Sequence record: SRR31156797_6066
Reading direction: 5' to 3' (one strand)
DNA: 64,000 nt
In this document: positions 1,874 through 4,472 of the stretch, one piece after another
Numbering within the stretch: position 1 is the first letter of the stretch
Layout: every line of letters starts with the position of its first letter
Notes under the pieces: generated by a model
What the model was told of the DNA's origin: nothing
What the model saw: only the letters and a program-made list of their open reading frames with translations
Databases searched by the model: none
Made by a program: the position numbers and the translations under genes

Positions 1874-3175
1874 CTACATTGGAGTATCTTTGTTATCAAA
1901 AATATTCGAGAAGCTCTTTTTAAACCAACCATCAATACTTCCATGATTTTCTTCCTCCTCTTCCATCTCCTCATTCTCAATTTCAGCTTCGGCAACTTTT
2001 TCTTGCACTTGTTGTGTTTGAGTATGACTCTGAACTTTTTGTTCTTCAGATCTTTTACGCATTAACTCTTCTCGGCGCTGCATTTCTTCTCTGCGTTTTG
2101 CCGCAGCTTTTTCCTCCTCAGCTGCTGGATTCTCAATGATTAATTCCAACTTCGACTCCTCTTCAGGTCTTGTGCGAGGCTGAATCATTAATTCAGGAAT
2201 CGGGTTCTCAGAAAAACCAGTAGCAATAATGGTAACGCTTAATTCTTCGCCCATTTTTTCGCTATAACCATTACCCCAAATCACACTAACATCATCACCC
2301 ACCACATCGTGAACGTAATCAGTAATCTGACTTACTTCCTGCATAGTAACCTCTTCGCTACCTGAAATGATGTTAAGAAGAATGTTACGCGCCCCTACAA
2401 TGTTATTACTATTTAAAAGTGGCGAATTTAGAGCTTCTTCGATAGCTCTAATCGAACGATCCTCACCAGTAGCCGATGCAGAACCCATTACCGCAACACC
2501 ACTATTTCTCATCACTGTTTCAACATCCGCGAAGTCGACGTTTACATAACCGGGAACTGTGATAATCTCGGCAATACTTTTCGCTGCAACTGATAAAACA
2601 GTATCGGCTTCGGCAAATGCATCAGACAATTTTAAGTCTCCATACATCATTCGAAGCTTCTCATTATTTATAATTAGAAGTGCATCAACATGTTTTTCCA
2701 GATTTTCTATTCCTTCTAATGCCTGTTGAATACGCTTTTTTCCTTCAAATCTAAAAGGAATGGTTACAATTCCAACCGTAAGAACATCTTGTTCCCTCGC
2801 TGCCTCGGCAATTACCGGTGCTGCACCAGTTCCGGTTCCACCACCCATTCCTGCAGTAACAAACACCATTTTGGTTTTCTGACTCAATACTTTATTGATA
2901 TCATCTAAACTTTCAATAGCTGATTCTCTTCCCCGCTCAGGTTTATTTCCAGCGCCACGACCTTCGGTTAAAGATCTTCCCAACTGTACTTTAATTGGCA
3001 CCGGGCTATTTTCGAGAGCTTGTGCATCAGTATTGCAAATTACAAAATCAACCCCCGTAATTCCTTCTTTTAACATGTGGTTTACAGCGTTTCCTCCGCC
3101 TCCACCAACACCAATTACTTTTATAATGGATTTTTCTTTTGGTTCAAAATCAACCGGTAATAATTCGTCAATCAT
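1874..3175 (-). CDS. ftsZ: Cell division protein FtsZ, upstream paralog ending in an FtsA-like amphipathic tail
   Basis: [28 protein letters not shown]7 loop [11 protein letters not shown]; no PAYxR peptide; ends [18 protein letters not shown]. Confidence 0.95.
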
Positions 3176-3209: not shown

Positions 3210-4472
3210 CTACATATCCACATCATGGGTATCAAACAATGAACCAAGAATAGTTCTCAATCCTCGTTTCTTTTTAGGTTTATCATTTTCTACTGCCCGT
3301 TCTACTTTCTTTTTAACTGGTTTTTCCAAACCTTTCAACAAGAGACCAATTGATGTAGAATACATCGGCTGATCCATATTTTCATCAAGTAAAATTTTAC
3401 TTGAATTTCCAGGAAAACCAAGTCTCACATCCAATCCAGTTCTTTCTCTAGCCAATTGATCCAAATTTTTCAACAATGCACCTCCTCCAGTTAATACAAT
3501 ACCAGCTCCAATTTTATCATGTAATCCGGTAATTTCGATCTGAAATTTCACACTATCGATAATCTCTTCCATACGGCACTGAATAATCTGCGCCAGAGTT
3601 TTAAAAGAAATCTCCTTAGGATCCCAACCACCTACACTCGGGATGGTAACAACTTTATCGTCGTCAGCCAAATCGGCAACCGCTTCACCAAACTGAATTT
3701 TTAAAGCTTCGGCTTGTTTCAAAAGCACAGAACATCCCTCTTTAATATCCCGCGTAACGATATCTCCACCAAATGGAATAACTGCCGTATGTCGAAGTAT
3801 ACCATCGAAATGAACTGTAATATCAGTAGTCCCTCCGCCTATGTCAACAAGAACAACTCCTGCTTCCTTTTCTTCTTCGGTTAAAACAGCAAGTGAAGAT
3901 GCAAGTGGTTCCAATACCAATTCTTCAATTTCAAGATCGACTTCCTTCACACACTTTTCAATATTGCGTGCTGATGCGGTACGCCCAATGATAATATTAA
4001 AATTACCATCCAATCGTCTACCCGCCATCCCTACCGGGTTACGAATACCAGCTTCCTTGTCGACCACAAAATCCTGAGGAATAACATGTAAAATTTGTTC
4101 TCCAACCTCAATCGGAAGACGAAAATTCTCATTTAAAATTTCGTCAACATCAGCTTTAGTGATCTCCTCGATTTCGTTCTGAATGTATTTAAATTGCCTG
4201 TGCTTAATACTACGAATGTGCTGTCCGGCAATTCCGACGTACACTCGGGAAATATCTTCATTCGAATTCTCTTTCAAACGCACAACAACTTCACTTATCG
4301 CCTCAATCGTGTCTTCGATACTGTGAATTACTCCCCGCTTTACTCCCTTCGATCCTGTTTTCTCCATCCCGAGAACTCTTAACTTCCCTTCTGGAGTAAG
4401 CTTTCCCATAATGGCAACAATTTTTGTTGTACCAATATCAATAGCAGCGATTATGTTGTTTCTACCTGTCAT
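3210..4472 (-). CDS. ftsA: Cell division protein FtsA
   Basis: AIDIGTTKI, LVDIGGGTTD, GIVLTGGGA actin-like ATPase motifs; between ftsQ and ftsZ. Confidence 0.97.
   Translation of the reverse strand: MTGRNNIIAAIDIGTTKIVAIMGKLTPEGKLRVLGMEKTGSKGVKRGVIHSIEDTIEAISEVVVRLKENSNEDISRVYVGIAGQHIRSIKHRQFKYIQNEIEEITKADVDEILNENFRLPIEVGEQILHVIPQDFVVDKEAGIRNPVGMAGRRLDGNFNIIIGRTASARNIEKCVKEVDLEIEELVLEPLASSLAVLTEEEKEAGVVLVDIGGGTTDITVHFDGILRHTAVIPFGGDIVTRDIKEGCSVLLKQAEALKIQFGEAVADLADDDKVVTIPSVGGWDPKEISFKTLAQIIQCRMEEIIDSVKFQIEITGLHDKIGAGIVLTGGGALLKNLDQLARERTGLDVRLGFPGNSSKILLDENMDQPMYSTSIGLLLKGLEKPVKKKVERAVENDKPKKKRGLRTILGSLFDTHDVDM

Follow-up and report, generated by a model that had tools for sequence, protein, structure and literature searches.

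What attachment of FtsZ filaments to the membrane is needed for constriction is a long-running question, and one that has mostly been studied with engineered fusions of FtsZ to a membrane-targeting sequence (FtsZ-mts), which form rings on liposomes. The C-terminal membrane-targeting sequence of Escherichia coli FtsA is established. Some natural FtsZ proteins have also been described as reaching the membrane by themselves. The FtsZ of Mycoplasma genitalium, which has no conserved C-terminal peptide (CTP), binds liposomes by a C-terminal amphipathic helix and is localized to the membrane in E. coli, according to Dutta et al. (bioRxiv 10.1101/2023.08.29.555414). In the Odinarchaeota, OdinFtsZ1 is reported to bind the membrane by an amphipathic helix of its own at the N-terminus, and OdinFtsZ2 to be recruited by SepF via its C-terminal tail (EMBO J 2025, PMC12583498); a membrane-binding C-terminal motif in Arabidopsis FtsZ1 is cited in both papers. 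Here, we describe a tandem pair of ftsZ genes in a 64,000-nucleotide stretch of Marinifilum DNA (record SRR31156797_6066; "the window" below means this whole stretch). Downstream of ftsA, a canonical ftsZ (ftsZ2) is kept beside a second copy (ftsZ1), whose product has no CTP and ends in an FtsA-type tail, a putative membrane-targeting sequence.

The earlier note on this locus had treated a natural FtsZ with its own membrane-targeting sequence as unheard of. This was too strong, since the accounts just cited have both Mycoplasma FtsZ and OdinFtsZ1 binding membranes by amphipathic helices of their own. Literature searches, Marinifilum FtsZ included, turned up no paper on two FtsZ genes in tandem in Bacteroidota with a tail like that of FtsA. 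In the available parts of a survey of the FtsZ family (PMC9871819), Bacteroidota are mentioned just for their placement in the tree.

Two sound FtsZ cores with different ends

At its left end, the window has the division genes in a single minus-strand row, in the order ftsA-ftsZ1-ftsZ2, followed by a yqeY-like gene; all coordinates given below for the genes and their parts refer to that strand. ftsZ1 (1874-3175, stop codon included) encodes 433 amino acids (aa) and ftsZ2 (612-1847) encodes 411 aa. The open reading frames and family matches bear out the earlier description of two intact ftsZ genes in tandem after ftsA: FtsZ1 matches PF00091 with 161.2 bits and PF12327 with 77 bits, and FtsZ2 does so with 160.7 and 84.5 bits, each clearly over the threshold. 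The closest relatives of FtsZ1 in the PDB are FtsZ chains, the best of them at 301 bits over residues 19-321. Given an alignment of 40 FtsZ, AlphaFold2 predicts a confident core for FtsZ1 (residues 1-325; 2201-3175), in which the predicted local distance difference test (pLDDT) is mostly 80-96. The cores of FtsZ1 and FtsZ2 align gap-free over 328 residues and share 70% identity. Both copies keep GGGTGTG and the T7 motif (NVDFADV in FtsZ1, NVDFEDV in FtsZ2), as had been noticed before, and the G-box and T7 residues are invariant among the 40 aligned FtsZ, which include both types. Over 325 core columns, 34 differences are fixed between the two paralog groups and 196 columns are invariant in both, a pattern that fits two separately constrained roles.

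The C-termini are another matter. A CTP matrix of 15 columns was built from 21 distinct canonical FtsZ CTPs from outside the Marinifilaceae. On this matrix, the end of FtsZ2, with the conserved peptide IESIPAYKRK (681-710, of which PAYKRK takes up 681-698), scores 38.8 bits, a value reached by none of 206 background tails. The end of FtsZ1 scores -6.5 bits, which 76 of the same 206 tails equal; since this is within the background, FtsZ1 has no CTP by this measure. Thus, the earlier assignment of the conserved peptide to the downstream copy and its absence from the upstream one both hold. By eye, SIDGWFKK in the FtsZ1 tail could be taken for a degenerate SIPAYKRK, but the score of -6.5 bits rules this out. 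Thus, its core, which matches the FtsZ families, marks FtsZ1 as an FtsZ, and its tail, in which the CTP is absent, as a non-canonical one.

The CTP is not the very end of these proteins. In the single-copy FtsZ of the order (loci L030-L039; for example, L030:4220-5692 and L035:4167-5648), which are about 490-530 aa long, it is followed by 35-45 further residues, which include a conserved SR[YF][ST]L stretch and finish in a manner similar to NNSYLHDNVD. The extension beyond the CTP is shorter in the FtsZ2 of Marinifilaceae (612-680 in the window), where it ends in SGNVIKFTLDDE.

An FtsA-type tail on FtsZ1

What, then, is found at the end of FtsZ1? Behind the core lies a linker (residues 326-412; 1940-2200) of low pLDDT that varies between species just before the tail, and the tail itself makes up the last 21 residues (413-433), which the earlier note had placed at 1874-1939: its codons occupy 1877-1939 and the stop codon 1874-1876. 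The FtsA of the same operon has the C-terminus ...GLRTILGSLFDTHDVDM (the last 21 codons, KKKRGLRTILGSLFDTHDVDM, lie at 3213-3275) and shares with FtsZ1 the pattern [LI]FDxxDxxM-stop. This likeness had been drawn as a gap-free alignment of the two tails. The pattern is real, and the tail stands far above chance both on a matrix of FtsA tails and on a hidden Markov model (HMM) of Bacteroidota FtsA C-termini, the latter a comparison that the earlier note had itself proposed.

The FtsA homologues used for this purpose were exclusively from outside the Marinifilaceae (P0062-P0135) and at most 64% identical to the FtsA of the window. Many of them end like ...GDLFGNIKKTFAGIFDEKDVEM, and such ends, read from the C-terminus, are nearer to the FtsZ1 tail than is the tail of the operon's own FtsA. 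The anchored matrix had 21 columns counted from the C-terminus and was made from 74 FtsA of other families, with 39 distinct tails. It gives the FtsZ1 tail +15.4 bits and the operon's FtsA +16.2 bits; canonical FtsZ ends range from -4 to -27, and the background maximum is -3.6 (224 C-termini). Not one of 10,000 shuffles of the FtsZ1 tail matches the observed score, and all 20 of the Marinifilaceae FtsZ1 rows score at least +4.2. The HMM, which tolerates register shifts, was built from 65 distinct tails (P0062-P0135 together with the FtsA of the single-copy loci L030-L040) and run on 320 tails. Here, the FtsZ1 tail reaches 22.8 bits (E 1.3e-6), compared with 19.8 bits for the FtsA of its operon. 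Among tail-type FtsZ, 17 of 33 are found at E<=0.01 and 25 of 33 at E<=1; the corresponding counts for canonical FtsZ are 0 and 4 of 40, and no background tail out of 217 comes in at E<=1 (best 2.7 bits). A chance likeness is excluded by the matrix, shuffle and HMM results taken together, and by these sequence comparisons the FtsZ1 tail is shown to be homologous to the C-terminal tails of Bacteroidota FtsA.

The acidic end of the shared pattern is not found throughout. The FtsA proteins of locus L004 (L004:3206-4447) and of P0052, P0055 and P0058 stop after ...LFD or ...LFDN, without the xxDxxM seen in most of their relatives. Since some Marinifilaceae FtsA do without it, this end is not essential for FtsA.

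Conservation, spread and selection

The window belongs to Marinifilum (Marinilabiliales, Marinifilaceae in the NCBI taxonomy) and is 99% identical to a locus of an uncultured Marinifilum (L001). Wherever a Marinifilaceae locus extends far enough to include ftsZ1 (19 loci, from Marinifilum, Ancylomarina and Labilibaculum), a tail-type ftsZ follows ftsA. The canonical copy is also seen in 18 of them, and the remaining one (L013) stops at a contig end. Across 17 Marinifilaceae FtsZ1, seven tail positions are invariant (W417, K419, I425, F426, D427, D430 and M433), and the stretch before the tail is variable. Beyond the family, Mariniphaga sediminis (Prolixibacteraceae) has the same row of ftsA, tail-type and canonical copies. 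The survey of orthologues suggested in the earlier note thus finds the tail conserved, in the Marinifilaceae as well as in genera of Prolixibacteraceae.

Another part of FtsZ1 is also near-invariant in these 17 proteins, namely a linker block at residues 342-378 (2042-2152), which includes an arginine-rich stretch of mixed charge and overlaps a long predicted helix (350-396). This block is absent from the tail-type FtsZ of other families.

How far do such proteins extend? A word-based search with FtsZ1 residues 385-433 returned 15 proteins of 431-439 aa, and all of those with a named source were from Marinifilum. To reach other genera, a profile made from 12 non-Marinifilaceae tail-type FtsZ had to be searched against the protein collection. 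Among the matches listed, 119 of 120 have no CTP, their tails read like S[IV]DNWF[YF]KNFGL..LF[DE]..DQ, and those with a named source come from Mariniphaga, Maribellus and Draconibacterium. Each has the plain annotation FtsZ. A collection of eukaryote proteins also contains a tail-type FtsZ (P0194) that shares 72% identity with the Mariniphaga one and is probably a bacterial sequence inside a protist data set.

FtsZ_C matches were counted in 201 genomes sampled from the order. At least two were found in 12 genomes, and in 11 of these the genes are in tandem. The gene order is the same in all 11 loci and in Mariniphaga: ftsA, one or two tail-type copies, and then the canonical copy. The twelfth genome (G141) has only an unlinked, short FtsZ-like gene. 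In G141 and G073, short FtsZ-like open reading frames of 281 aa (L043:3335-4180) and 319 aa (L044:3274-4233), which have neither linker nor tail, are found outside the division cluster. Three ftsZ genes in a row after ftsA are found at L022:2872-7374 and L028:4141-8264 (L027 is near-identical), the first two being tail-type copies whose tails differ and the last canonical.

At the level of the phylum, where 301 genomes were sampled, at least two matches occurred in 15, one of which is the centre genome. The ftsZ copies of the remaining 14 are on separate contigs or more than 1 Mb apart, and every copy in the four that were read (L045-L053; genomes G322, G345, G413 and G464) has a CTP of the PAY[LI]RR type. 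A tail-type tandem beyond the order sample was not found among the 301 genomes, with 4 of the 14 multi-copy genomes read at the sequence level. The two or three unlinked ftsZ genes of these 14 genomes represent a different kind of FtsZ multiplicity, and nearly every copy in the four genomes read combines two CTP-like motifs, AYIRR and PAYLRR, at a distance of about 40 residues from each other.

Selection on the Marinifilaceae genes (19 FtsZ1, 18 FtsZ2 and 19 FtsA) was estimated from Nei-Gojobori counts as the ratio of nonsynonymous to synonymous proportions of differences (pN/pS). The ratios, which are rough because pS is 0.5-0.8 and so near saturation, are 0.084 for the FtsZ1 core and 0.060 for the FtsZ2 core, 0.069 for the CTP of FtsZ2, 0.28 for the FtsZ1 tail, 0.34 for the FtsZ1 linker and 0.46 for the FtsA tail. 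Both FtsZ cores are under strong purifying selection, and the value for the FtsZ1 core speaks against a relaxation of selection, which the earlier note had raised as an objection to its own reading.

Gene order and RNA-library contigs

At the head of the row, ftsA (3210-4472) encodes a protein of 420 aa with matches to PF14450 (148.6 bits) and SHS2_FTSA (80.7 bits). It is separated from ftsZ1 by 34 nucleotides (nt), and ftsZ1 from ftsZ2 by 26 nt (1848-1873). The row ends with the yqeY-like gene (111-557; PF09424, 159.6 bits), 3' of which lies a terminator-like hairpin (64-88). No terminator-like site was found on the minus strand between ftsA, ftsZ1 and ftsZ2; one lies after the yqeY-like gene (88-64).

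The RNA libraries of two studies include contigs that cover ftsA, ftsZ1 and ftsZ2 in part. One of them (run X3, record 3), 240 nt long, matches 1788-2027 with zero differences and thus holds the tail codons of ftsZ1, the spacer and the start of ftsZ2. Some intervals, such as 999-1256 and 3579-3836, have no cover by RNA contigs, which is uninformative on expression.

Proposed origin of the FtsA-tailed copy

How might an FtsZ have come by the tail of its neighbor? Most likely, ftsZ1 arose at the junction of a tandem duplication. In such an event, one breakpoint would have been in the linker of ftsA and the other in that of ftsZ, and the junction would have joined the FtsZ core and linker to the FtsA tail. 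The product would then read ftsA, FtsA-tailed ftsZ, spacer and complete ftsZ. It follows from this model that the FtsA-tailed copy should always be the upstream one, and this holds at every locus read. That the tail matches Bacteroidota FtsA argues, at the sequence level, for an origin independent of Mycoplasma-type FtsZ.

Some of the evidence counts against so simple a history. The core tree places the tail-type copies in at least four groups on an unresolved backbone and does not separate one origin from several; in this tree, near-duplicates had been thinned (46 of the 73 FtsZ rows and 8 of the 20 Marinifilaceae sources were kept, with L027 and L037 dropped). In the approximately unbiased (AU) test, a single tail-type clade was not rejected (log-likelihood difference 25.3, p 0.121). 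Nor is a DNA trace of the duplication junction left, the cores being too diverged.

Two further ideas about the origin were tried and given up. The string AGTAAC occurs in both spacers and was considered as a trace of the junction; such strings are too short, and the duplication is too old. The FtsZ tails might also have tracked the FtsA tail of their own genome, which would fit recent independent origins as well, but the observed summed score of 259 compares with a permuted mean of 258.6, and 9,691 of 20,000 permutations reach it.

Does FtsZ1 anchor itself?

What might the two paralogs do together? The explanation that we favor, and consider fairly probable as a whole, is that both ftsZ1 and ftsZ2 have long been retained as functional FtsZ paralogs, and that a self-anchoring FtsZ1, with the FtsA-type tail as its anchor, shares one ring with an adaptor-bound FtsZ2. 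The CTP of FtsZ2 would dock on FtsA and other CTP-binding proteins. On the inner membrane, the FtsZ1 tail would adopt the form of a short amphipathic helix (residues 415-426 or thereabouts), with the side chains of W417, F418, F422, I425 and F426 inserted into the bilayer. Single FtsZ1 tails would bind weakly, so that attachment would depend on the avidity of the polymer. Filaments containing FtsZ1, either alone or mixed with FtsZ2, would then be tethered directly, and FtsZ2 would provide the handles for FtsA and the regulators. Co-polymerization of the two is plausible, judging from their 70% identity and intact assembly motifs. An extended version of this scheme is possible, if somewhat doubtful: a duplication-born FtsZ-mts chimera would have been kept in several marine Bacteroidota families, forming a heteropolymer ring with two modes of tethering in which the ratio of FtsZ1 to FtsZ2 sets the degree of membrane coupling, and the three-copy lineages would extend the same arrangement.

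Does the tail look like a membrane anchor? In part, it does. AlphaFold2 places a helix at residues 415-426 (1898-1933). The best hydrophobic moment over 14 residues is 0.583 for FtsZ1, 0.550 for FtsA and 0.372 for the end of FtsZ2, and the median is 0.533 in 33 tail-type FtsZ, 0.571 in 37 FtsA and 0.342 in 32 canonical FtsZ. For the best 12-mer, the interfacial free energy comes to -1.65 kcal/mol in FtsZ1 and -0.65 kcal/mol in FtsA. Among the 119 tail-type FtsZ in the matches listed, the flank before the tail carries a median charge of +5, with values between 0 and +8. Judged by sequence, the tails outside Marinifilum thus have the classical make-up of a basic run followed by an amphipathic helix. 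That the tail of Bacteroidota FtsA is a membrane anchor may be inferred from its position and from the FtsA of other phyla, and direct membrane binding by FtsZ1 would follow from the likeness of the two tails.

A number of points weigh against the proposed anchoring. Its basis is likeness of sequence, and for the Bacteroidota FtsA tail, too, the role of membrane anchor is putative. The predicted tail helix has a pLDDT below 50. It had been observed earlier that the hydrophobic residues of the FtsZ1 tail fall on one helical face; this is true, but it is not exceptional, as the moment of 0.583 is reached by 40 of 224 background C-termini and by 380 of 5,000 shuffles. The interfacial energy is equally ordinary, with 49 of 196 background tails as low. 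The FtsZ1 tail has a net charge of 0 and the 25 residues preceding it one of -10, compared with +2 for the FtsA tail and +3 for its flank. Such an acidic flank should repel anionic lipids; the only basic residues within the predicted helix are K419 and K420, and there is no basic flank in the window. With the electrostatic part missing in Marinifilum, the binding, if real, would be weak per subunit and polymer avidity would be needed. The acidic end xxDxxM is kept in FtsA and FtsZ1 tails, which membrane insertion leaves unexplained. Finally, the RNA contigs are assembled, may hold DNA and do not show transcript ends, so that their support for expression and co-transcription is weak; with that reservation, the contigs from two studies that cover ftsZ1 speak against an unexpressed paralog, the other objection that the earlier note had foreseen.

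The retention of xxDxxM in the FtsA of several families and in FtsZ1, although it is unhelpful on anionic lipids, would be expected if the shared tail were a docking peptide. Through a C-terminal [IL]FDxxDxxM, FtsZ1 would share with FtsA a binding partner, a division protein specific to Bacteroidota; FtsZ1 would have been re-addressed to this partner, and any role as an anchor would be absent or partial. The unexceptional amphipathicity of the FtsZ1 tail and its strongly acidic flank in the species of the window would also be compatible with such a role. Nevertheless, this is unlikely. The acidic end is dispensable in those FtsA proteins that stop after ...LFD (L004, P0052, P0055 and P0058), and the tail-type FtsZ of other lineages vary it and keep the basic run and the aromatic-rich amphipathic stretch, which is the usual make-up of membrane-targeting sequences. 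Moreover, FtsZ tails are no nearer to the FtsA tail of their own genome than to those of other genomes (259 vs a permuted mean of 258.6), which argues against the joint tracking of a partner.

Self-anchoring might also be a minor matter, with the loss of the CTP as the real point. FtsZ1 would then be a modulator that co-polymerizes with FtsZ2, dilutes the handles for FtsA and the regulators along each filament and so tunes the dynamics of the ring, much as chloroplast FtsZ1 does for FtsZ2. The CTP loss is clear, co-assembly is plausible with 70% identical cores and their assembly motifs, and a divergence in filament properties is suggested by the 34 fixed differences in the core. On the other hand, a loss of function alone would not retain a terminal motif of 21 residues, and the FtsZ1 tail, with its seven invariant positions, is under no less constraint than that of FtsA (pN/pS 0.28 vs 0.46). 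From family to family, the type of tail stays the same, whereas the preceding stretch is free to change. We therefore regard a modulator with an incidental tail as quite unlikely. It is very improbable that ftsZ1 is a recent or decaying duplicate with no role of its own, and with a likeness to FtsA tails that is due to chance. Nothing speaks for this beyond the fact that tandem duplicates often decay, and it is at odds with the presence of the pair in all 19 Marinifilaceae loci that reach ftsZ1 and in Prolixibacteraceae genera, with the strong purifying selection on the core and with the exclusion of chance for the tail.

Comparison with known systems

With regard to self-anchoring as favored above, these bacteria appear to have made the FtsZ-mts fusion naturally and to have kept it beside a normal FtsZ and FtsA. 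They would thus offer a natural system, in culturable walled species, in which to ask what direct tethering adds to tethering by adaptors and how two FtsZ paralogs share one ring. If the proposed origin is true, this would be a clear instance in which a short functional peptide has passed from one cytoskeletal protein to its neighbor via a duplication junction. In practical terms, the analysis yields sequence-defined constructs and target residues for simple localization and liposome tests.

How does the pair compare with what is known elsewhere? At the level of prediction, FtsZ1 is a self-anchoring FtsZ without a CTP and with a terminal amphipathic helix. In this it resembles M. genitalium FtsZ, which likewise has no FtsA-binding CTP and ends in an amphipathic helix, one that in FtsZ1 is predicted. 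However, the M. genitalium protein is the sole FtsZ of a wall-less cell, and its helix is not described as related to FtsA in the available portions of the paper. In Marinifilum, a canonical FtsZ and a tailed FtsA are kept beside FtsZ1 in a walled, Gram-negative lineage, and the FtsZ1 tail is homologous to FtsA tails; its membrane binding, unlike that of the Mycoplasma protein, is putative. As in the Odinarchaeota, the paralogs would divide the work of tethering, one of them directly by its own amphipathic helix (here predicted) and the other via an adaptor. The Odinarchaeota proteins, on the other hand, are archaeal and ancient paralogs, with an N-terminal helix, with SepF rather than FtsA as the adaptor, and with no tandem after ftsA.

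Chloroplasts also have two FtsZ, just one of which has the canonical CTP; the other plastid paralog modifies ring dynamics and has a C-terminal membrane-binding motif of its own. These are proteins of a eukaryotic organelle that go back to an independent duplication, and the motif is described as an amphiphilic beta-strand, unrelated to FtsA. To our knowledge, plastids have no FtsA.

The engineered FtsZ-mts fusions share with FtsZ1 the design of a core and linker followed by a membrane-targeting amphipathic helix in place of the CTP, the helix being predicted in FtsZ1. They are artificial and have taken their helix from another division protein, whereas FtsZ1 is natural, carries a tail of the FtsA type and occurs together with the wild-type form. 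Finally, the FtsZ1 tail is like the membrane-targeting sequence of FtsA in its position at the extreme C-terminus after a variable linker, in its predicted amphipathic make-up and in its sequence (22.8 bits against Bacteroidota FtsA tails). It differs from that sequence in being carried by a tubulin-type rather than an actin-type protein and, in the species of the window, in having no basic run before the helix.

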